From Escherichia phage PNJ1902, in sequence record OK254197.1: 64,000 nt of DNA. The stretch is one strand, 5' to 3'. Shown here piece after piece: positions 3,808 through 64,000 of this stretch (position 1 is the first letter of the stretch; every line of letters starts with the position of its first letter). The notes beneath the pieces were generated by a model. The model was given only the letters and a program-made list of their open reading frames with translations, searched no databases and had not been told where the DNA came from. A program made the position numbers and the translations under genes.

Positions 3808-4289
3808 TTGATTATAATGGTCTAAAGACCATTTTTGGTGAAAAACTACCAGAATCTCATATCTTCTTTGCTACGGTTGCTGCGCATAAATATGTTCCTA
3901 GCTATGCTTTTCTGCGTAGAGAACTAGGACTTTCATCTGCGCATACTAACCGTAAAGTATGGAAGAAATTTGTAGAGGCTTATGGTAAAGCAGTTCCACC
4001 GGCTCCACCATTAACTCTTTCTAAAGATTTAACTGCTAGCATGTCAGTTGAAGAGGGAGCAGCATTAACACTTTCTGTTACTGCAACTGGTGGTACTGGT
4101 CCATATACTTATGCATGGACTAAAGATGGTTCTCCTATTCCTGGTGCTTCAGGAGCTACCTATACTAAGCCTGCAGCAGCTACAGAGGATTCTGGAGCCT
4201 ATAAAGTAACTGTAACAGATAGTAAGCAAGTAAGCAAGGACTCTGCTACATGTGCTGTGACAGTTAATCCTACTGTTCCTGGAGGCTAA
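3804..4289 (+). CDS. Head decoration protein with C-terminal Ig-like domain (pb10-like)
   Basis: 161 aa; C-terminal GGTGPYTYAWTKDGSPIPGASGATYT...DSGAYKVTVTD is an Ig-like (I-set) signature; sits between portal and protease. Confidence 0.7.
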   Translation: MIDYNGLKTIFGEKLPESHIFFATVAAHKYVPSYAFLRRELGLSSAHTNRKVWKKFVEAYGKAVPPAPPLTLSKDLTASMSVEEGAALTLSVTATGGTGPYTYAWTKDGSPIPGASGATYTKPAAATEDSGAYKVTVTDSKQVSKDSATCAVTVNPTVPGG

Positions 4290-40013: not shown

Positions 40014-40044
40014 TTATTTATATCTCTCATCAATTTATATAAAT

Positions 40045-40073
40045 ATTATATAATAAAACTGAGTTGAAAGCAA
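40045..40073 (-). promoter_or_regulatory. Early promoter for ligase N-terminal gene
   Basis: TTGCTT - 17 bp - TATAAT, ATTTATATAAATTGA discriminator. Confidence 0.6.
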
Positions 40074-40084
40074 ATACATTTATA

Positions 40085-40117
40085 AAGAAAAAGCCAAGAA
40101 CTAGGCATTCTTGGCTT
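40085..40117 (-). terminator. Rho-independent terminator (minus strand)
   Basis: AGCCAAGAA-loop-TTCTTGGCT hairpin followed by TTTTTCTTT on minus strand. Confidence 0.55.
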
Positions 40118-40792: not shown

Positions 40793-41203
40793 TTACTTAG
40801 TGATAGCTCGGATTGCTTCTGCCAGATGAGCGGCTGCTTTACCGGTCAGTTTGTCGATAATTGCATCATCCAGAAAATCTGGTGCTAGGCCAGCATCAGA
40901 GAATGCTGAACGAAGATCGGCATGAGCTTGGGCTTTGGAAGTACGAGAACCACCAGAAGCTTTTTCTCCAGTAGATGCGCTAGATTTAGAAGCAGAGCCA
41001 GCAGCTTTCTTGATATACAAACCTGCTTTAGTCAGCTTCATACGAAAACCGTTCGGAGTTACACCATTTTCCTGGGCAATTTCGCTAACAATTTCCATGC
41101 TAACACCCGGACGTTCATCCTCTGGGAATTGCTCCATACGAGCAACGTATTCGGAAGACATTTTTTCGAACAGTTCATCAGTCCACTGAGTTGGAGTAGT
41201 CAT
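40793..41203 (-). CDS. Hypothetical protein with one HTH-like module and low-complexity Ser/Ala-rich region
   Basis: 136 aa; ...EIVSEIAQENGVTPNGFRMKLTKAGL... resembles the modules in the 37300-38067 protein. Confidence 0.5.
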   Translation of the reverse strand: MTTPTQWTDELFEKMSSEYVARMEQFPEDERPGVSMEIVSEIAQENGVTPNGFRMKLTKAGLYIKKAAGSASKSSASTGEKASGGSRTSKAQAHADLRSAFSDAGLAPDFLDDAIIDKLTGKAAAHLAEAIRAITK

Positions 41204-41260
41204 ATTTTATATTTCCTTAATTAAGAATTAAACAGAATAGTTCTTTCAAACTATGAGAAT

Positions 41261-41289
41261 ATTATATCAAGAATTATAGGATTAAGCAA
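41261..41289 (-). promoter_or_regulatory. Early promoter
   Basis: TTGCTT - 17 bp - TATAAT. Confidence 0.6.
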
Positions 41290-41309
41290 CTGAAATTTTT
41301 CGGTAACTG

Positions 41310-41564
41310 CTACACATCTAGCTCAACAATCTCCCAATCATCCGCTAGAGCTTCTTCTAGAGTAAGGTTTACTTGACGGATAAGTGGGGATTCCATACCG
41401 TTCTCCCACACATGTTCAGTCACTGTACCCTGCTCTACGTTAAATTCTAAAACCACTGTAAAGTGTTTATTATTTTCCCAGCAATCTCGCTGGAGATATT
41501 TTACGTCCCCAGCTTTCAGCAAATCTGTTAGCTTACTCACGGCGTTTTCCTTTTTCTTTATCAA
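41310..41564 (-). CDS. Hypothetical protein
   Basis: 84 aa ORF. Confidence 0.45.
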   Translation of the reverse strand: MIKKKENAVSKLTDLLKAGDVKYLQRDCWENNKHFTVVLEFNVEQGTVTEHVWENGMESPLIRQVNLTLEEALADDWEIVELDV

Positions 41565-42237
41565 ATTTCAAGGCAGCCTTAACAGCTTCATTAATTAATG
41601 AAATTACTTCTTCACGAGTCCACTTGTACCCTAGAGATTTTACGTCAACCCCTAATTTTTCCAGATGTTTAACAGAAGCCAGCTCGTAATTCATATAATG
41701 GACGTTCTGTTGTTTGCCTTCTGATAGAAGCCATACACGATAGCAACCAACAGGATTATCCATTGCTTTTTTGATTTCACCAATACACTGGTATCCAGGA
41801 ACCCAAACAAGCTCACCAACTGCAAATTCTTCTGCTACAGCATCATCAGGAATAATTGGAGGATTCAATGGATCTACAATATCGTTCAAACGAAGTAGAG
41901 CACCATATCGTTCCAGAACAGATTTAACCATTGCTACAGAGCGGTAATTACGATCGGCAATTTCTTCGAAAGAATCACCAGATAAATACTGCTCAATAAC
42001 GTTAGCTAACTCAATGCCTTCAATGAGTGTGCCACGTTTCTTTTTCTTCATTTCGGCAACTTGAATCTGGCGGTCTTGCCATTCTTCAATCATCCTTTCC
42101 ATAGTTGGATTGGATGATACGCCGAGCATTTCACATGCTGCTTTCTTAGTACCACCGTTCTCCAGATGCTCTATAACCTTTTTAAAGACTTCATCCGGGA
42201 TTTCATGGATATGTTTCTTTCTACGAGAACCAGCCAT
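41533..42237 (-). CDS. Putative HTH DNA-binding protein (possible regulator)
   Basis: 234 aa; N-terminal HTH-like GGTKKAACEMLGVSSNPTMERMI; immediately downstream of a PN25-like promoter. Confidence 0.55.
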   Translation of the reverse strand: MAGSRRKKHIHEIPDEVFKKVIEHLENGGTKKAACEMLGVSSNPTMERMIEEWQDRQIQVAEMKKKKRGTLIEGIELANVIEQYLSGDSFEEIADRNYRSVAMVKSVLERYGALLRLNDIVDPLNPPIIPDDAVAEEFAVGELVWVPGYQCIGEIKKAMDNPVGCYRVWLLSEGKQQNVHYMNYELASVKHLEKLGVDVKSLGYKWTREEVISLINEAVKAALKFDKEKGKRRE

Positions 42238-42548: not shown

Positions 42549-45312
42549 CTAGCTCTGCCATTGCTTCATCATGCATATGTTTCTCCTCATCAGTCATAAA
42601 CTTATATGGGATTGGCATACACTCGATTTTACAATAGGTTCTGTACCAGTCTACAATATTCTCCGTGTTCATATCCTTACCAATACCCATCATACCAAGA
42701 TACATTCTCGCATATTTTGGGTTAGCACTCTGACCTGTTTTAAGGAAGAAATCTTTCTTCTTACCTTTCAGAGCTTCTATGAATGGTTTGATAGTGACAT
42801 TTGAACACTTCTTAATATCTTCCCAGAACATCTCGTGCATTTTATGGAAGAATGCCGCTCGATCATTCGGTTTATCTTTGATATATTGTTCAACGTGCTC
42901 AACTGTTACATCTTTAATAGACTCAAGATGATAGTAGCGAACAAGAAGTAGTTTAGCCTCATACGCATCTGCATGGCGTGGAGCACAATAATCAGGAGTT
43001 GAATACAAAATGGCTTTGATTCGCTCTTCCGTATACTCTTTTCCTGCACCTTCGATAGTTCCCCAGCTTTCACTGAAAATATCAATAGTTGCACCCTGAT
43101 CAAGCAAGTAATAACGTAAGGTACTAGTATAGTTTCTAGATTCCAGCTCTCTACGACGTGCGTATAATTGCTGTGCTAACTCCAGCCAACCTTCATCAAT
43201 GTTATATTGTTCAGAACCTGCGGAGAATCCACTCGTAGATTTATCAATAAAATAATAAATGTTCTGAGCGCCACGGTCGCGCCTGATTGCTTGGAAACGC
43301 ATGTTTGGCGCTTGGTTACTGGTTCTAGTAATAACGAATACGTTATCAAAGTAGTTGAAGTCAACGCCACTCGTTACGGATGGACTACATAATAAGCAAT
43401 CAATTTGTTGATCAATTAGCTCATTAGTTGTGTAATCCAGAATACGTCGAATATCTACATCAGACGTAGAATTTGAGTGGATTTCCTTAACTAGGGCACC
43501 TGTATTACGACGTAATGCCATACCCTTCTCATTCAGTTCATCCGGCCCACAGTCAGATACTAGGATAGATTTCTCACCCATCTCTAGAGAAGTCTGAAGT
43601 GCAACCCAAATACTGGATTCATCCGGGAACTCATAAGCATGAGCTTTTGACAGCATCTTACGGTGATGGTTGTAAAATGCAACCGGTTTATCAAAATCAA
43701 TTAGAGAACCGTAGGCTTCAATCGTCTCAGCACTAATATCACCATCAGATAAGATTACAGTTTTAGCTGTCATGAGGATGTCACGTAGAACTTGAATACA
43801 TTCGCGACGTTGTTTAACAACGGGGGCGAATAATAGATCATTCATTACAGCGTCACATTCATCAATAAAAATGGTGTCTATTTGACCAATAAAACTCTTG
43901 AACTTATGCAAAGAGTGAATAGTTGTGGACATACGGTCAATAGCGCCACGCTTAAAATTAAGCATATCTACAGACTTATCATATTGTCCTGCACTAAATT
44001 TCTTAGCATTTGAAGATACCAGCGCTCTAGTATTTGTAACTGCTAAAAAGTTGCCAGGAAGAACACCTGCGTCCAGCCATTTAGTTACTGCCGTAGTTTT
44101 ACCAGTACCAAGACTTGCCTTAACAAATGTTATATGGCCTTTTGGGGGCACAATGTTAATCTTCAGGTATGGAACTTCTGGTGGAGAATCCACTTCTAAT
44201 TTCTTGAGTGGAACACCTTTCAGATTTAATGGAATCTCACGTTTAGAATTATTAACAAACGCTTTGAGAGCCTGCTTGCGACCGTTATTAAAGTAATCTT
44301 GAATATTACGACTATTATCTTTAGTTGCAATATATTCAGATAAAGCGGGTTTAATCTCACGTTCTAGCCATGCGAAATCAACACCATCCTCTAATGCTCT
44401 ATGGTATAGTTTGGGGATAATACGCAAGTACACCCCATCCTCAGCTTCTTCCAATTCGCTGATGGTTTCTTCTACTTTATCAGACGCGATCTTTTTGCCT
44501 TTAATTTGGTCAAGTAAGGAATAGAATTCCTCTTTAAACTCTCCTCTAGTTGTTTCATAATCAACCAGATTATTGGGCAAATTTACCTTCGAACCTTTAA
44601 CATACACCAGACGTGGCTTACTCTCCGCTTTAAACGGATCTACAATACCATCGCTAAATAAAGGGTCGGCAAAATAGTGAAGCTGGACAGATGAATAATA
44701 AGCTAAGTCGGCAATGTCAAAACCGAATTTTTGCTTACTACTATCGTTGATGGATGTAAATAAGAACTTTAGCTGACCCTGAGTTACCTTGACGTTAGAT
44801 TCTAGCATTAAGTGCATTCGGATACCTGGTTTTAGGCCAGCCGAAGATGATGCATGAGCAATAAACCCTGCATCAAGAGGAAACATGTCCTCACTAATAC
44901 TATTCAACATCTTAATAATGTGGCGGGCCATGCCTACAAGATTAAACTTGTCGTACCCACCGGTATCTAGGATACCATCCACGTCCATAGCAATAATATT
45001 GCTGGGGTTGGATACATTAAAGTTACCTTTCTTACGCCGCACGTTATTTTTAGGTGCAAGACATCGACCTCGTACCGCAACGATATGAGGATCAGACGTT
45101 AAACGTCTCATAAGTGGTAACATTTCGGCAAGGCTTTGCGGGTCATGCTCTTCTATTACATCAAATTTGAAGGGCATAGAGGCTGGTTTACCTTCTGGAT
45201 GCTCTTTCGAGAATCGCTTGGCAAAGGTATAATCCTCCGCTTTGATTTCTCGCCAAATACCTGTTGCTAAATCACGAGAAAATCCGGCGTGACCTTGAAG
45301 AATAGAAAACAC
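42523..45312 (-). CDS. Large P-loop NTPase, putative replication-associated helicase / origin-binding-type protein; GTG start
   Basis: 929 aa; Walker A ASLGTGKTT and Walker B IFIDECD; RBS AGGAG 7 nt upstream of GTG. Confidence 0.75.
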   Translation of the reverse strand: MFSILQGHAGFSRDLATGIWREIKAEDYTFAKRFSKEHPEGKPASMPFKFDVIEEHDPQSLAEMLPLMRRLTSDPHIVAVRGRCLAPKNNVRRKKGNFNVSNPSNIIAMDVDGILDTGGYDKFNLVGMARHIIKMLNSISEDMFPLDAGFIAHASSSAGLKPGIRMHLMLESNVKVTQGQLKFLFTSINDSSKQKFGFDIADLAYYSSVQLHYFADPLFSDGIVDPFKAESKPRLVYVKGSKVNLPNNLVDYETTRGEFKEEFYSLLDQIKGKKIASDKVEETISELEEAEDGVYLRIIPKLYHRALEDGVDFAWLEREIKPALSEYIATKDNSRNIQDYFNNGRKQALKAFVNNSKREIPLNLKGVPLKKLEVDSPPEVPYLKINIVPPKGHITFVKASLGTGKTTAVTKWLDAGVLPGNFLAVTNTRALVSSNAKKFSAGQYDKSVDMLNFKRGAIDRMSTTIHSLHKFKSFIGQIDTIFIDECDAVMNDLLFAPVVKQRRECIQVLRDILMTAKTVILSDGDISAETIEAYGSLIDFDKPVAFYNHHRKMLSKAHAYEFPDESSIWVALQTSLEMGEKSILVSDCGPDELNEKGMALRRNTGALVKEIHSNSTSDVDIRRILDYTTNELIDQQIDCLLCSPSVTSGVDFNYFDNVFVITRTSNQAPNMRFQAIRRDRGAQNIYYFIDKSTSGFSAGSEQYNIDEGWLELAQQLYARRRELESRNYTSTLRYYLLDQGATIDIFSESWGTIEGAGKEYTEERIKAILYSTPDYCAPRHADAYEAKLLLVRYYHLESIKDVTVEHVEQYIKDKPNDRAAFFHKMHEMFWEDIKKCSNVTIKPFIEALKGKKKDFFLKTGQSANPKYARMYLGMMGIGKDMNTENIVDWYRTYCKIECMPIPYKFMTDEEKHMHDEAMAELGARNDSEE

Positions 45313-50971: not shown

Positions 50972-51163
50972 CAATATTTTACTATAAAGTTCTGTAACAT
51001 GATCTGAGTCAAAAAATTTTATTTGCCAATCTCTATTAAAAATTGTATAATCACGCACTCGTGCACGCGATATAAAATGATTATCTAGTATCACACATCT
51101 CACGTTAAAAGCAAGCAAATTTTTTATTTAAATGCAATATCATAGGCTTATTTAAAATTGTAG

Positions 51164-51192
51164 TTGCTTTTTACTGTATATATTGGTATAAT
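51164..51192 (+). promoter_or_regulatory. Early promoter for phoH unit
   Basis: TTGCTT - 17 bp - TATAAT. Confidence 0.6.
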
Positions 51193-51265
51193 ATATTTGT
51201 AAGTTGATAAACAAGATCTTTTTGTTGATCCTCTGTTAGCGAAGTACACTATAGGAGTGTTATTT

Positions 51266-60170: not shown

Positions 60171-60872
60171 ATGAAAGTAAAACCATTTGGTATGCTAGAT
60201 ATTGAATCTCTAGGAACTCCAGGAGATTGTGGTACTACTCATATCGCAATGCCTTCTTTCGCTTTTGTGGCTATGCATGGAATTGATAAAGACCCTGATC
60301 TAGTATTTGTTACTTTGGATGTGCAAGATCAACTTAATTCTGGTGCCAAAGTTACAGCATCTACTCTAGCATTCTGGATGGATCAAGCTAAAAATAGTCC
60401 GTCTGCTATCCACATTATGGAAGCTATGAAGGAACGTAATCCAAAACTGATTGCCTTCCAAAATGGTAAACATCATTGCACTAATAAATTAGGCTCAAAC
60501 TATGCTGCCTTCTCTATGGCTCAAAATATTATGGAGTTGGCTCTAGGCGAAAATGCTTTGTATTATGGCAATGGCCCAGAGTTTGATATGACTATCTACT
60601 CTGCAAATACGTTCCATGCTGGAACCAATGAAGAGGTAGTTCCGTGGAAATTCTGGAATTTGGGCAATGTTCGATCTCTTCGTAATCTCTGGATGCAAGC
60701 TGGATACAGTTATAAAGCTCTAGAGACCGAAGGTATTAGCTGGGCAATAGCTAAAATGGAGAAGATGGACACTATTCGTTATGGGATCTATCCGGTTAAG
60801 CACGACCCAGCATTCGATGCCTTAGTTGAGAGCTATTGTGTTGCAGCTATGATCGAAAAAATGAAAATTTGA
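60171..60872 (+). CDS. Putative DEDDh-family 3'-5' exonuclease (DnaQ-like fold)
   Basis: 233 aa; exo I-like MLDIESLG and exo III-like HDPAFDA motifs. Confidence 0.55.
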   Translation: MKVKPFGMLDIESLGTPGDCGTTHIAMPSFAFVAMHGIDKDPDLVFVTLDVQDQLNSGAKVTASTLAFWMDQAKNSPSAIHIMEAMKERNPKLIAFQNGKHHCTNKLGSNYAAFSMAQNIMELALGENALYYGNGPEFDMTIYSANTFHAGTNEEVVPWKFWNLGNVRSLRNLWMQAGYSYKALETEGISWAIAKMEKMDTIRYGIYPVKHDPAFDALVESYCVAAMIEKMKI

Positions 60873-60873
60873 T

Positions 60874-60902
60874 TTGCTTCCGGCTCCAAAATTCTGTATA
60901 AT
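60874..60902 (+). promoter_or_regulatory. Early promoter
   Basis: TTGCTT - 17 bp - TATAAT then ATATTCATAAATTTGAGA. Confidence 0.65.
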
Positions 60903-60942
60903 ATATTCATAAATTTGAGAAAACAATAAAAGGAAAACAAAT

Positions 60943-61125
60943 ATGCCAGTATCTAAAAATGTTCGTAAAAATGGTAAGAAAGCTACTCGTGATCTGGGTA
61001 TCCGTCGTATGGCTGAACGTCAATCAGGTATCCAGAAAATCTTTAATCTACTAAATCGTGCTAATCCTAAAATTGATAACAGTAACGATACTGTTCTGCG
61101 CACTCTGCTGGCAATTGGTCTGTAA
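60943..61125 (+). CDS. Small basic hypothetical protein
   Basis: 60 aa; RBS AAAGGAAAA; own promoter. Confidence 0.45.
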   Translation: MPVSKNVRKNGKKATRDLGIRRMAERQSGIQKIFNLLNRANPKIDNSNDTVLRTLLAIGL

Positions 61126-61178
61126 TAGACCAAATTTAAACAAATTCAAATCTCAAACTTCATATAAGGAAGCAAATA

Positions 61179-61817
61179 ATGACTACTCGTATTTCTAAAA
61201 CTCGTGCTCTGGCAACTATCAAATCTCTGGAAGCTAAAATCCGTAAAGCTACTGAACAGCAGCTTCTGATCGCTGTTGGTGAAGGTAAGGATAAAAACCA
61301 GGTTGTAGTTGGCGCTGCAATCGAAGTAGCCGATCTGTCTACTCGTATTAAGACTGATTTCCAGTCTCTGCTGGATATGATGTCTAAGCGTGATAGTATC
61401 AAATCTGCTCTGATTAAGAGCAATGCAGAAACAATCGTTGAGATTGGTTCTCGTAAGATGACTGTTGCGGAAGCAATTGAAGCTAAGCGTTCTATGGAGC
61501 TTAAAGCTCAGCTGCTGGCTAACATGCGTAAGCAGTTCCATGCCGCTACGGTTAAGTTTAATACGCAGAAAGCACAGTTTGACGCTAAATATGAGCGTTT
61601 GCAGGATAGCATGGCTACCCGCGATAAGAAAACTTCCGAAGATGAAGTTAAAATGCAGCTCAACCTGCTGGAACTCAAGAATACTCCATTCTTGATTGAT
61701 CCGCTGGAACTGGAGAAGCTGATTAAGCAGCATGACGAGGAATACCAGGACTTTGCAACAAATGTTGACTTTGTTCTGTCCGAGTCTAACGCCTCTACCT
61801 TCATTGAAGTAGAGTAA
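61179..61817 (+). CDS. Hypothetical protein (highly expressed early protein)
   Basis: 212 aa; host-optimal codon usage; RBS AAGGAAG. Confidence 0.6.
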   Translation: MTTRISKTRALATIKSLEAKIRKATEQQLLIAVGEGKDKNQVVVGAAIEVADLSTRIKTDFQSLLDMMSKRDSIKSALIKSNAETIVEIGSRKMTVAEAIEAKRSMELKAQLLANMRKQFHAATVKFNTQKAQFDAKYERLQDSMATRDKKTSEDEVKMQLNLLELKNTPFLIDPLELEKLIKQHDEEYQDFATNVDFVLSESNASTFIEVE

Positions 61818-62200
61818 TAATTTAAAAGCTAGTAAATCGGTAGACGAAAGCCTAAGCATCTTACCTCGCAGCAGCGGTTGAAATACGAGGTTAAATAAGA
61901 CCGCTGACCATACTATAAAGTATAATCTATTGGAGATTATGTTTATTACACCAGCCTTTTAAGCTGACACGTAAGAACAAAGCGTCGTTGATATTACCGA
62001 CACAACTTCAAAGATCAACATTTAAGTATGAAAGCTGAAAAGTTTAAAGAACTCAAACTTCTAAACTTCTAAAGCTAAAAGATGCAAAGTATTCGTTGAT
62101 GATTCAAACCCTAGATCAAAGGTACATGGCTCATAAGATATGGCCTGTGGCGCCTCTAGGCTGTTTATCGGTTTACTAGTTTCACAATTTAAAAATGTAT

Positions 62201-62229
62201 TTGCTAATCTACTAAATTATATGTATAAT
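62201..62229 (+). promoter_or_regulatory. Early promoter
   Basis: TTGCTA - 17 bp - TATAAT. Confidence 0.65.
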
Positions 62230-62259
62230 ATATTTTTAAATTGATGAAACGAGGCTATT

Positions 62260-62577
62260 ATGACTTTTCATATTTTGATTGATGATGTGCGTAATCTTCA
62301 CGGAATGGACATTATCATTCGAACCCCAGAAGCCGCTGTAGAGTTTCTGAATAAAACTGATACCACAGGCCATTTTGTTTATATGGATAATGACTTGGCT
62401 GTAGATGGTATGGAAGGTTATCAAATTCTTCGTTTACTCTTAGAATTTGGGCAGAGACCAAAGAAAGTGGTACTAGTAACCTCGAACCCAGTAGCTAAGC
62501 AAAATATGCGTAATGATTTGCTTGACTTAGGGTATAAAGAAAATCCCAATCGTGTTGAATATGATTGGCAGGAGTAA
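62260..62577 (+). CDS. Hypothetical protein
   Basis: 105 aa ORF with RBS; overlaps downstream gene. Confidence 0.5.
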   Translation: MTFHILIDDVRNLHGMDIIIRTPEAAVEFLNKTDTTGHFVYMDNDLAVDGMEGYQILRLLLEFGQRPKKVVLVTSNPVAKQNMRNDLLDLGYKENPNRVEYDWQE

Positions 62578-63032
62578 AAAGAATGAAGGCAGCTTTGCTT
62601 TTAGTAGCTGCCCTTACCTTCAGCTTTAGTAGTCAGGCATCGCACGATGCAAAAGAAATAGATTGCATTGCTAAAAATATCTATTTCGAGAGTCGTGGTG
62701 AGGGCATAAAGGGAATGACGGCGATTGCACATGTTACTAAAAACCGTGTAAACTCCGGTAAATTCCCAGATTCCTACTGTAAAGTAGTATATCAGTCTAA
62801 CCAGTTCTCTTGGGTATCTAAGAGACCAAAAGTTGATAAAACCGATGAGGCTTGGCAAACAGCCAAGAATTTAGCTAGAGTGATATACTACGTTGATTTA
62901 CCACAAGATCCTACACATGGAGCACTATACTTCCATAGTGGTAAAGATAAACCTTATTGGACAAAGAAGTTTAAGAAAACAACTAAGATTAAGGGACATA
63001 CGTTTTATAAACCTGTTGTCACTAAAACTTAA
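62565..63032 (+). CDS. Secreted cell-wall hydrolase-like protein (SleB / Hydrolase_2-like) with signal peptide
   Basis: N-terminal MKAALLLVAALTFSFSSQA signal-like segment; CIAKNIYFESRGEG...VTKNRV and SNQFSWV motifs. Confidence 0.6.
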   Translation: MAGVKRMKAALLLVAALTFSFSSQASHDAKEIDCIAKNIYFESRGEGIKGMTAIAHVTKNRVNSGKFPDSYCKVVYQSNQFSWVSKRPKVDKTDEAWQTAKNLARVIYYVDLPQDPTHGALYFHSGKDKPYWTKKFKKTTKIKGHTFYKPVVTKT

Positions 63033-63751: not shown

Positions 63752-64000
63752 ATATTCATAAATTAGGGAACAGCGAGCCGATTACGCTGAGTGCAGAATC
63801 CCAACCGGAGCGCATTGAATAGAGTCGGTGGGTTAGTTGTAAAACTAGTACACAGGGGGCGGCAATCCCGGTTAGTGGCTAGAACGTGTAAAATGAGGCG
63901 TCTGAAACCTCTCCCCTAAACTCTTCTCTAATTTATAAATAGTGGGGTGTGGAAATCACTTATGTAGTAACACTGCCGTCCTAGTATAATTGGTATTATC

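Follow-up and report, generated by a model that had tools for sequence, protein, structure and literature searches.

A candidate large structured RNA directly 3' of the T5.085-family gene in phages and Bacillota

For about 70 years T5 has served as a model phage, yet it contains a 440-bp gap that is annotated with a promoter only. The same spacer is present in Escherichia phage PNJ1902 (OK254197.1), of which a stretch of 64,000 nucleotides (the window) was analysed here, and it raises the question of what such a region might specify. The first-pass annotation of this DNA had described an ORF-free region without a terminator, lying between an upstream gene and a promoter at 62201, and these features are borne out. 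The upstream gene stops at 61817 and the longest ORF between 61818 and the next gene (62260) is 34 aa. The promoter scan finds a T5-type sequence, TTGCTA-N17-TATAAT, starting at 62201; this promoter is the 3' limit of the element described here and lies outside the RNA. A scan of positions 60800 to 62700 gave no terminator-like site, and hence no sign of the GC-rich hairpin with a U-run behind it that marks an intrinsic terminator or simple 3' stabiliser.

Two pairs of inverted repeats had also been pointed out, and both are present: CCTCG (61864-61868) with CGAGG (61886-61890), and CAGCGGT (61872-61878) with ACCGCTG (61900-61906). They had been called nested, which is incorrect, as the arms interleave in the order A-B-A'-B', the topology of a pseudoknot. 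By themselves the repeats are at chance level (23 inverted pairs in 491 nt). The folding energy of the single sequence is unremarkable (z = -0.46 and -1.37) and was excluded as evidence. We judge the repeats to be real because of their conservation and covariation, not because of their count or energy.

Among 28 unique T5-like sequences, 57 of the 442 spacer sites are variable (13%), whereas the flanking genes differ at 123/212 and 51/105 of their third codon positions (49–58%). Within this set only six of 120 sites vary in the block 61818-61937, and the blocks 61818-61950 and 62018-62180 are near-invariant across Tequintavirus and Epseptimavirus. Comparison of these genomes shows strong purifying selection on the spacer, whose sequence ranks among the most strongly constrained of the region. 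A lack of conservation in related phages, which had been named as an argument against a structured RNA, is not seen in the spacers of T5-like phages.

Homologues directly 3' of the same gene, hereafter the partner gene, were detected with nhmmer in Ro1, Mydo, K54, EspYZU08, Hena1 and My1 (E = 4e-16 to 3e-10). Profile and nhmmer searches place the element in Vequintavirinae, in My1 and in metagenomic lineages, and the metagenomic lineages raise the set of homologues to 11 clusters (92% identity). Covariance folding across homologous phages had been proposed as a check, and homologues at about 50% identity retain all tested helices by compensatory change. Over 17 lineages 94.9% of pairing cells are paired, compared with 63.9% in shuffles and 31–48% in slid controls, a count biased toward the structure by helix arms that were chosen by hand. 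Double changes are found in 26 of 31 pairs, and the covariation score (0.882 versus 0.249) was beaten in 0/500 shuffles. From unfitted alignments RNAalifold retrieves P1, S1, P3b, H6, H6b and H7. As read from the aligned homologues, covariation shows support for all four of the formally counted helices, P1, S1, S2 and H6. The compensatory changes reach across about 316 nt. Among the cells G.U pairs far exceed A.C combinations (90 vs 3), which is why the transcript is assigned to the + strand. The strong conservation of the spacer, the covariation and the want of a conserved ORF together support the earlier proposal of a structured non-coding RNA or 3' UTR element.

The conserved architecture consists of a closing helix P1 (13–21 bp), a CGAAA motif, an H-type pseudoknot, variable hairpins, a zone of YUNAAAG units with 7-nt periodicity, a long 3' hairpin and the sequence GGCUG, which precedes the 3' arm of P1. 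Its parts in the window are listed in Table 1.

Table 1. Positions in the window of the RNA element, its parts, the partner gene and the next promoter.
Feature	Positions	Strand	Basis
Whole structured RNA element, ~357 nt, bounded by closing helix P1	61826..62182	+	nhmmer/profile homology, consensus fold, covariation
P1 5' arm, pairs with 62162-62182; uninterrupted 21-bp long-range helix including G.U pairs	61826..61846	+	Inverted-repeat search, RNAduplex
Junction GAAAG...CAUCUU; conserved CGAAA after P1, AUCUU before pseudoknot	61847..61862	+	Invariant alignment columns
Pseudoknot stem S1, 5' arm ACCUCG, pairs with 61886-61891	61863..61868	+	RNAalifold, 10/10 sequences
Pseudoknot stem S2, 5' arm CAGCGGU, within S1 loop, pairs with 61900-61906	61872..61878	+	Covariation
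Pseudoknot stem S1, 3' arm CGAGGU	61886..61891	+	RNAalifold, covariation
Pseudoknot loop L3, UAAAUAAG	61892..61899	+	'GAGGTTAAA' invariant in near group
Pseudoknot stem S2, 3' arm ACCGCUG	61900..61906	+	Covariation
Hairpins P3a (61910-61914/61919-61923) and P3b (61922-61928/61934-61940)	61910..61940	+	P3b in consensus fold
Hairpin P4, CAGC (61952-61955)/GCUG (61963-61966)	61952..61966	+	Compensatory change in T5-likes
Variable linker, least conserved part of spacer, lineage-specific hairpins	61967..62004	+	25–30% of sites vary; indels here
A-rich repeat zone, ~10 YUNAAAG-like units (UUCAAAG, UUUAAAG, CUAAAAG ...)	62005..62094	+	Motif counts
3' domain, 83-nt hairpin: AAAC/UCC lead-in, H6, H6b, H7, GGC-U, P1 3' arm (62162-62182)	62100..62182	+	
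Helix H6 of 3' domain	62110-62115/62155-62160		
Helix H6b of 3' domain	62121-62123/62152-62154		
Helix H7 of 3' domain	62128-62131/62142-62145		
Invariant loop capping H7, CAUAAGAUAU	62132-62141		
Partner gene, homologous to T5.085; phrog_1491, 212 aa, labelled 'tail fiber protein'	61179..61817	+	ORF, T5.085 identity, phrog_1491 match
T5-type early promoter of next gene (T5.084 homologue, cREC domain)	62201..62229	+	Scan; annotated in T5 and AKFV33

P1 has a predicted energy of -26.4 kcal/mol here (RNAduplex), and independent predictions give it in each of the lineages, with energies of -24 to -36 kcal/mol. It is 19–22 bp long with differing sequence in most lineages, among them the T5-like, Vequintavirinae and L093 lineages, is interrupted in My1, L072 and the Hena1 group by an internal loop that is 2x2 or otherwise small, and is shorter (13–17 bp) in several distant lineages. 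Double changes are present in 11 of its 13 counted pairs. The CGAAA junction motif is found in the distant loci too. In the pseudoknot the four arms interleave as in an H-type fold and both stems have evolutionary support. S1 is paired in 86% of cells over the 17 lineages, with double changes in five of six pairs. S2 is paired in 100% of cells and all six pairs are compensatory, with up to five pair types; within the T5-like phages U.G and G.U substitutions occur in S2 in L002 and L031. The invariant UAAA at the start of L3 suggests that this loop may cross the minor groove of S1, and distant members likewise have A-rich L3 loops. The resemblance of S1 to an SD/anti-SD pair (ACCUC/GGAGGU) is taken as coincidence, since distant members are without it.

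Hairpin P3b covaries (ATAATCT/AGATTAT vs ATCAT/ATGAT vs TTATC/GATAA), and among T5-like phages P4 shows a compensatory change of C-G to A-U (CAGC/GCTG vs CAGA/TCTG). The 3' domain is 81–83 nt long in 15 of the 15 near-group sequences extracted. An internal helix at 62013-62019/62095-62101 was dropped, its support being inconsistent among lineages.

The repeat zone is recognisable in all lineages by its YUNAAAG-like units. In the window the motif A[AG]AG is observed seven times with 1.3 expected (z = 5.5), and 18 of 20 lineages show an enrichment (z = 2.5–8.2) with a spacing of mostly 7, 14 or 21 nt. The predicted unpaired probability of the zone is not above that found elsewhere. A short motif that recurs many times at regular intervals makes the zone a candidate for protein binding.

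The partner gene lies upstream on the same strand, at a distance of at most 27 nt, in 52 of 53 loci that were anchored on the RNA, and among loci anchored on the protein the RNA architecture was found in all those inspected. The pair of gene and RNA occurs in Demerecviridae (three subfamilies), Vequintavirinae, Herelleviridae and Grimontviridae, in phages of Lactococcus, Pseudomonas and Vibrio, and in jumbo phages of Erwinia. A covariance model, R1, covers only the 83-nt 3' domain and was built solely from near-group sequences. In the 64-kb window its sole significant match is the 3' domain (E = 3.7e-20). R1 also matches behind distant partner genes, where position and strand are as expected, in L034 (4e-6), L037 (2e-5), L042 (7e-4) and Ea35-70 (3e-3). 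The partner gene was detected in 177 bacterial species-representative genomes; R1 flags 21 loci downstream of it in bacteria, and the RNA was read in six of the bacterial loci. In many chromosomes of Bacillota, for example in Solibacillus and Tepidibacter, gene, RNA and terminator form stand-alone cassettes amid ordinary cellular genes. The rho-independent terminator follows the RNA, not the gene, in bacterial and several phage homologues, which supports the suggested co-transcription with the upstream gene. The structured RNA proposed in the first-pass annotation is thus supported, but that annotation missed its extent of about 357 nt across the whole spacer, the pseudoknot and the widespread family linked to one gene.

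The product of the partner gene has no sequence match in Pfam, NCBIfam or PDB. It is predicted to be a long bundle of helices capped by a conserved beta-sheet, a predicted fold that offers no RNA-binding precedent. The 'tail fiber' label on phrog_1491 is a widespread mis-annotation, which is corrected here. In most phage loci tRNA arrays flank the module of gene and RNA, and this frequent neighbourhood points toward a role in translation, tRNA or RNA metabolism.

A search of 9 kb with the 4227 models of Rfam 15 gave no match in the element at E <= 1. With the limit raised to E <= 10 for 441 nt, only three chance matches to eukaryotic snoRNA or miRNA families appear, far under the gathering score. 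None is found at the gathering score in the element at 15 loci, or at E <= 0.5 in seven diverse members. ARAGORN, covering tRNA, tmRNA and permuted forms, finds nothing in the window, and Rfam matches to tRNA and YrlA in homologous loci are only on true tRNA genes that flank the element. The RNA thus matches no family of Rfam 15. In the literature compared, apart from a catalogue that lists 10,006 candidate viral RNAs in bulk (PMC10690425), no description of the RNA or of work on T5.085 was found.

The reading that we favour, at about even confidence, is that the + strand of 61826-62182 specifies a large structured non-coding RNA, which forms the 3' portion of the T5.085-family transcript and acts with the protein encoded there. 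The RNA and the protein would form an RNA-protein complex. Its folded core would consist of the pseudoknot, P1 and the 3' hairpin, and the repeat array may be a multi-site platform for an oligomer of the protein, by analogy with the spaced triplets read by TRAP and HutP. In enterobacterial phages the 19–22-bp P1 may double as an RNase III-type processing stalk that frees the RNA from the polycistronic early transcript.

OLE RNA, which is cited in PMC12286853, is a large structured RNA of Bacillota that forms a complex with the dedicated, genomically linked proteins OapA, OapB and OapC. The element resembles it as a large structured RNA with a linked protein gene in Bacillota, with a complex that here is proposed only. 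It differs in that fold and sequence are unrelated, with no Rfam match, in that the partner is predicted to be soluble and helical and belongs to no Pfam family, and in that the module is common in virulent phages. Regularly spaced arrays of short motifs are read by an oligomeric protein at TRAP and HutP sites and in the CsrB and RsmZ sponges, and the HutP site, UAG-N4-UAG, has a 7-nt period. The A[AG]AG units at multiples of 7 nt are similar in this respect, whereas the motif is a different one, the array lies inside a large folded RNA under a long closing helix, and binding is hypothetical here. In the processing stalks of rRNA operons and the RNase III sites of T7 early mRNA, a functional RNA in a polycistronic transcript is enclosed by a long-range helix of about 20 bp. 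P1 in the enterobacterial phages, at 19–22 bp, is comparable in length with the roughly two turns (20 bp or more) of unbroken dsRNA expected of such a stalk, and cleavage here would be hypothetical; because P1 is only 13–17 bp in several distant lineages, processing by RNase III cannot be universal.

On a wider and more tentative reading, to which we give somewhat less than even confidence, the helical protein and the pseudoknotted heptad-repeat RNA of about 350 nt may be an ancient two-part module and a new type of RNA-protein complex. It would serve in translation, tRNA or RNA metabolism, or in phage-host conflict, in Bacillota and in many unrelated families of large virulent phages, among them classical T5. 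Few large structured RNAs are known from bacteria, and unusual biochemistry has repeatedly been found in them. The function is directly testable, given the hypothesis of a dedicated partner, the defined architecture and the tractable hosts (E. coli/T5, Bacillus and Lysinibacillus).

The position of the RNA, invariably 3' of the same gene and ahead of the terminator where there is one, would also be expected of a 3' UTR element that acts only in cis. Such an element, not being a separate molecule, would control the stability or translation of the T5.085-family mRNA, either as a barrier to 3' exonucleases or through autoregulatory binding of the protein. The non-T5 lineages have an additional hairpin between the stop codon and P1, which could shield the end of the mRNA. 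We consider this explanation unlikely, as an RNA of about 300–400 nt that combines invariant loops with a pseudoknot and a closing helix is far more elaborate than the known 3' stabilisers, and the element is more constrained than the coding sequence that it would serve. Moreover, in Vequintavirinae the RNA adjoins a tRNA gene, which RNase P would cut off.

GOLLD (RF01998) and ROOL (RF03087) are large RNAs with many helices and pseudoknots, found in phages or prophages and often beside tRNA genes (PMC5737381, PMC12286853). The element is likewise large, multi-helical and pseudoknotted and occurs in phages with tRNA arrays nearby, and these shared properties could indicate an RNA-only machine, either a ribozyme or a self-assembler like ROOL and GOLLD, that does no more than share a transcript with a strongly expressed gene. 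Tertiary or catalytic roles are hinted at by the invariant loop nucleotides CAYAAGAUAU and GGAGGUUAAA. However, neither RF01998 nor RF03087 matches at any threshold tried and the other Rfam models are unmatched as well; the element has about 300–400 nt, against about 800 and 580, and only the element has a 7-nt repeat zone and a fixed tie to one protein gene. This linkage, which is seen from both sides of the search, is unexplained by co-transcription alone, and an RNA-only machine appears quite unlikely. Together with GOLLD and ROOL the element would be a third, structurally unrelated case of a large non-coding RNA in the tRNA regions of phages.

The favoured complex assigns the repeat zone to the partner protein. 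The YUNAAAG units might instead titrate an RNA-binding factor of the host or a ribonuclease of its defence during infection, as a decoy or sponge of the CsrB/RsmZ kind, and a short motif in many copies in an A-rich region is suited to this. The phage early region is rich in functions of RNA repair and tRNA, including an Rv2179c-like exoribonuclease, a cREC protein and tRNA arrays. We find a sponge distinctly unlikely: phages that infect Gram-negative bacteria share the motif with those of Gram-positive hosts, which speaks against a target specific to one host, the module also stands alone in bacterial chromosomes outside phages, and the linkage to the partner gene is left unexplained.

T5 genomes have site-specific nicks and poorly mapped replication origins (PMC10644984), and a DNA-level element, such as an origin, a nick site or a protein-binding region, might be sought in the spacer, where GGCGCC is found at 62149-62154. 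The paper checked does not give a consensus for the nick sites. GGCGCC is not conserved beyond the T5-like phages, and long-range compensatory changes are not those of a DNA site. The idea of a nick site or origin was dropped because of the G.U asymmetry, which is only sensible for a + strand transcript, and because of the bacterial copies, which are followed by a terminator; we strongly disfavour it as very improbable. Small proteins encoded in the spacer, for example by the 34-aa ORF at 62140-62244, are hardly credible even though several GenBank records annotate short hypothetical proteins there, as the ORFs of different lineages do not agree in position, frame or strand, no ORF in My1 reaches 25 codons, most substitutions within the mini-ORFs are non-synonymous or abolish the stop codon, and base pairs, not codons, govern the substitution pattern.

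The skipping-rope, drum and DUF3800 motifs are structured RNAs with a 'compelling association' with one nearby protein gene (PMC5737381). They differ from the element in size (about 80 nt), in their unrelated structure and in lying on either side or strand of the gene, whereas order and strand are fixed here. Two loci have a skipping-rope RNA upstream of the partner gene. In phage K, a large virulent phage, the non-coding RNAs lnc001 and lnc002 are abundant or stable and lie beside tRNA genes (PMC9241854). Membership of these RNAs in the same family is unsupported: the neighbouring phage K protein gp233 shows no similarity to the partner protein, R1 is blank in both phage K regions, and the family motifs are not seen in the one lncRNA region that was read.

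The stable RNA 'rnaX' of the T5 annotation is a separate locus about 1.5 kb downstream of the element. A second copy of the element in the genome was rejected, as the matches at a second place are to the repeated T5 promoter only; promoter-like repeats are found elsewhere in the window. In falkor the insertion of a homing endonuclease falls precisely where P1 ends on its 3' side, and the element is left intact.

The spacer between the T5.085 and T5.084 homologues of the window phage, a T5-like phage (Tequintavirus), carries a candidate large structured RNA (61826-62182, + strand). Over this region the window is 99.5% identical to Salmonella phage vB_Sen-E22 and relatives and ~96% identical to T5 itself. 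In the T5 reference the equivalent spacer (43063-43504) is annotated only with a promoter, and 60 phage records chosen to span the identity range show either nothing there or a promoter, ribosome-binding site, homing endonuclease (in falkor) or short 'hypothetical proteins'. The first-pass annotation described an ORF-free region of about 380 bp, with no recognisable terminator after the upstream gene and a promoter at 62201. These points hold: the longest ORF is at most 34 aa, the scan gives 0 terminator-like sites, and a T5-type promoter starts at that position. The region around this promoter (62187-62253) belongs to a dispersed ~60-nt repeat, 75-80% identical at ~10 other sites (e.g. 40027-40086, 51150-51215). 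This repeat is shared T5 early-promoter architecture, which explains a second match in some records searched with the spacer. The early region around the spacer is RNA-metabolism-flavoured. From collinearity with T5 40848-41566, the start of rnaX, annotated in T5 as a 719-nt stable RNA preceding tRNA-Arg, is expected at window ~63756-64000; it is a second uncharacterised RNA nearby.

Features of the spacer and its surroundings in the window, with variable sites among T5-like sequences
Feature	Position	Remarks
Rv2179c-like 3'-5' exoribonuclease, cREC protein and SleB-type cell-wall hydrolase	60171-60872, 62260-62577 and 62583-63032, respectively	neighbours
T5.085 homologue, upstream gene	61179-61817	212 aa; variable at codon positions 1/2/3: 34/11/123 of 212 each
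Whole spacer		57/442 variable
Spacer block	61818-61937	6/120 variable
P1, closing helix	61826-61846 with 62162-62182	21 bp
Junction	61847-61862	conserved CGAAA
S1, pseudoknot stem	61863-61868 with 61886-61891	
S2, pseudoknot stem	61872-61878 with 61900-61906	
L3, pseudoknot loop	61892-61899	invariant UAAA at start
P3a and P3b, hairpins	inside 61910-61940	
P4, hairpin	61952-61966	
Variable linker	61967-62004	
A-rich repeat zone	62005-62094	
Spacer block	62058-62177	9/120 variable
H6	62110-62115 with 62155-62160	
H6b	62121-62123 with 62152-62154	
H7	62128-62131 with 62142-62145	cap CAUAAGAUAU
GGC and U, then P1 3' arm	ending 62182	
T5-type promoter	62201-62229	promoter scan
T5.084 homologue, downstream gene	62260-62577	cyclic-phosphate-processing receiver (cREC) domain, PF20274; variable at codon positions 1/2/3: 20/10/51 of 105 each

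The variable-site counts come from 28 aligned, non-identical T5-like sequences, which belong to Tequintavirus and Epseptimavirus and reach down to ~87% overall identity, and they show that the spacer is more constrained than the adjacent proteins. Free variation is confined to 61938-62017, a linker, and to the promoter's spacer. Where substitutions occur, they are compatible with RNA pairing: hairpin P4 changes from CAGC/GCUG to CAGA/UCUG, and in two loci (L002, L031) stem S2 changes from C-G to U.G and from A-U to G.U. Within the same alignment the mini-ORFs of the spacer show non-synonymous changes or have lost a stop codon. A conserved short frame had been named as possible counter-evidence, and no ORF common to the lineages was found among the homologues compared; small ORFs as the conserved product are effectively excluded. 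The conserved 5' block has a single change private to the window: T at 61853, in the junction ahead of the pseudoknot, against C in each of the other 27 T5-like sequences.

The inverted repeats reported earlier are present (61864-61868 with 61886-61890, and 61872-61878 with 61900-61906), but they are interleaved rather than nested. This A-B-A'-B' order is the arrangement of an H-type pseudoknot. The repeats are unremarkable alone, with 23 inverted pairs across the 491-nt region, and the folding energy is ordinary (z = -0.46 for 61818-61950 and z = -1.37 for 62018-62200). Folding and covariance across homologues had been proposed as a check, and both yield conserved helices. RNAduplex predicted P1 separately in each lineage from differing sequences (-24 to -36 kcal/mol); the helix spans 19-22 bp in enterobacterial phages, and several distant lineages have 13-17 bp. 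RNAalifold recovers P1, S1, P3b, H6, H6b and H7 from unfitted MAFFT alignments. The arms of P1 (13 bp), S1, S2 and H6 were compared in 17 lineages, where standard pairs occupy 94.9% of 527 cells compared with 63.9% in shuffles and 31-48% with a slid partner; these arms were picked by eye, which biases the count toward structure, and the slid controls and unfitted alignments serve as guards. Both sides change in 26 of the 31 pairs, and the covariation score is 0.882 vs 0.249, surpassed by 0 of 500 shuffles. In S2 every cell is paired and all pairs are compensatory. In this count G.U fills 90 cells and A.C fills 3, and the transcript is therefore on the + strand, as are the flanking genes. An element acting as DNA is effectively excluded. 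By these comparisons the element is shown to be a structured RNA of the + strand that is strongly selected, which supports the first-pass proposal of a structured non-coding RNA.

Every lineage contains, from the variable hairpins to the 3' domain, an A-rich run of YUNAAAG-like units, for example UUCAAAG, UUAAAG and CUCAAAG, with GUUCAGAG in one lineage. The motif A[AG]AG exceeds compositional expectation in 18 of 20 lineages (z = 2.5-8.2), and its spacings are mainly 7, 14 or 21 nt. Thermodynamic prediction does not mark this zone as especially unpaired.

The architecture is also kept in distant phages. BLAST with the spacer reaches beyond the T5 group to a Klebsiella phage of 144 kb, where the match lies downstream of the T5.085 homologue. 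A profile of the T5-like spacer matches directly after a T5.085-family gene in the Vequintavirinae phages Ro1, Mydo, K54, EspYZU08 and Hena1 and in Pectobacterium phage My1 (E-values 4e-16 to 3e-10). Further lineages came from searching IMG/VR and JGI metagenomes for the invariant pseudoknot motif, giving a near group of 11 clusters at 92% identity with deep branches ~50% identical. Loci retrieved through the protein alone (29-40% amino acid identity to the window's protein) have the same RNA architecture as judged by eye; these include Bacillus phage Thurquoise (Herelleviridae), Lactococcus phage P1048, Pseudomonas phage KIL1, Vibrio phage pVp-1, Salmonella phage SE131 (Grimontviridae) and the jumbo Erwinia phage Ea35-70. 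As an objective homology test, near-group sequences alone were used to build a covariance model for the 3' domain (83 nt). Its sole match in the 64-kb window is 62100-62182 (E = 3.7e-20), and it matches at the expected position and strand in the distant partner-gene loci L034 (4e-6), L037 (2e-5) and L042 (7e-4), as well as in L043 (E = 0.016) and Ea35-70 (E = 0.003). The variable part of the Ea35-70 copy includes a permuted tRNA-like stretch (L234 ~2250-2330), with the T-arm-like GGTTCGATTCC preceding the D-arm-like TAGCTCAGTCGGTTAGAGC; ARAGORN makes no call there.

The RNA is linked to the partner gene without exception. In 52 of 53 loci found by RNA motif alone, a T5.085-family gene lies at most 27 nt upstream on the same strand, and the 53rd is a contig without upstream DNA; conversely, the RNA is present at every inspected locus recovered through the protein. 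The partner family (~205-215 aa) has the invariant motifs TVAEAIE.K and D.VLSESNA and has no sequence match in Pfam, NCBIfam or PDB. Members also occur in 177 bacterial species-representative genomes, most of them from Bacillota. In two of these bacteria, Solibacillus silvestris and Tepidibacter hydrothermalis, a stand-alone gene amid ordinary chromosomal genes is followed by a ~340-430 bp gap, which holds a ~300-nt RNA of the same architecture and then a rho-independent terminator. The 3' domain model flags 21 of the bacterial loci, 210-290 nt past the partner gene. Since the RNA adjoins the gene in both phages and chromosomes, the two form a conserved two-part unit, cellular and viral. The 'tail fiber protein' label of T5.085 (phrog_1491) is unsupported, as this is an early-region gene, phage copies usually adjoin tRNA arrays, and stand-alone copies occur in Bacillota chromosomes.

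Terminators, where they exist, follow the RNA and not the gene, so the RNA lies within the upstream gene's transcription unit, as the first-pass annotation had proposed. The same placement would suit a purely cis-acting 3' UTR, the first rival reading. We suggest that the RNA and the adjacent protein would assemble into a complex, with the pseudoknot, P1 and 3' hairpin as a folded core and the heptad-spaced repeats as a plausible multi-site platform for an oligomer. Further rivals are an RNA-only machine, against which the linkage to the gene speaks, and a decoy for a host factor. The P1 of enterobacterial phages is long enough for a putative RNase III stalk, at which cleavage would release the RNA from the polycistronic early transcript. 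A tRNA-Thr gene starts a few bases past the element in Vequintavirinae, and an RNase P cut there would trim the 3' side. The phage neighbours (tRNA arrays, the exoribonuclease and the cREC protein) give a hint of a role in RNA biology or translation. The comparative evidence for the existence and structure of the RNA is strong; expression, RNA ends, partner binding and function are put forward as inferences.

The element resembles the large 'ornate' RNAs GOLLD, ROOL and OLE of phages and Bacillota, and is tied to a specific neighbouring gene like the skipping-rope and drum motifs, but is a member of none of these families. Its repeat array recalls TRAP/HutP or CsrB sites, and P1 is like the closing stalk of rRNA precursors. 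All Rfam scans of the element and its homologues ended without a family match, and ARAGORN found nothing. The phage K lncRNAs beside tRNAs do not appear to belong to the same family. The literature search found no paper on this RNA or on T5.085; part of the element may be listed anonymously in a bulk catalogue (PMC10690425) that collects 10,006 candidate viral RNAs without names. Lying unannotated in a classical model phage, the element represents a new and widespread class of large structured RNAs, one that is coupled to an uncharacterised protein.

Several loci show further arrangements. Skipping-rope RNA (RF02924, 61-63 bits) is found ~270 nt upstream of the T5.085-family gene at L039 (2145-2232) and L041 (2142-2229), so that two different structured RNAs surround one gene. 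The 3' domain model matches twice in L287, a contig of a MAG that is labelled Parabacteroides, at 3830-3910 and 4192-4274, 360 nt apart and both downstream of one partner gene; the RNA may be tandemly duplicated here. Salmonella phage falkor (L005 1864-2401) has an HNH homing-endonuclease gene inserted exactly after the last P1 3'-arm pair (window 62181/62182), leaving the RNA intact and the downstream promoter split off from it. In the SHSML-45-like loci L017 and L018, past the position that corresponds to window 62262, the T5.084 region has been replaced or interrupted; similarity restarts only ~180 nt into the query, ~690 nt further along the locus. The short records OR848534 and OR847212 ('Listeria phage LM ...') and P0010 ('Enterococcus faecalis', partial) are ~98% identical to T5-like Salmonella/E. 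coli phages and are probably mislabelled or contaminant sequences.
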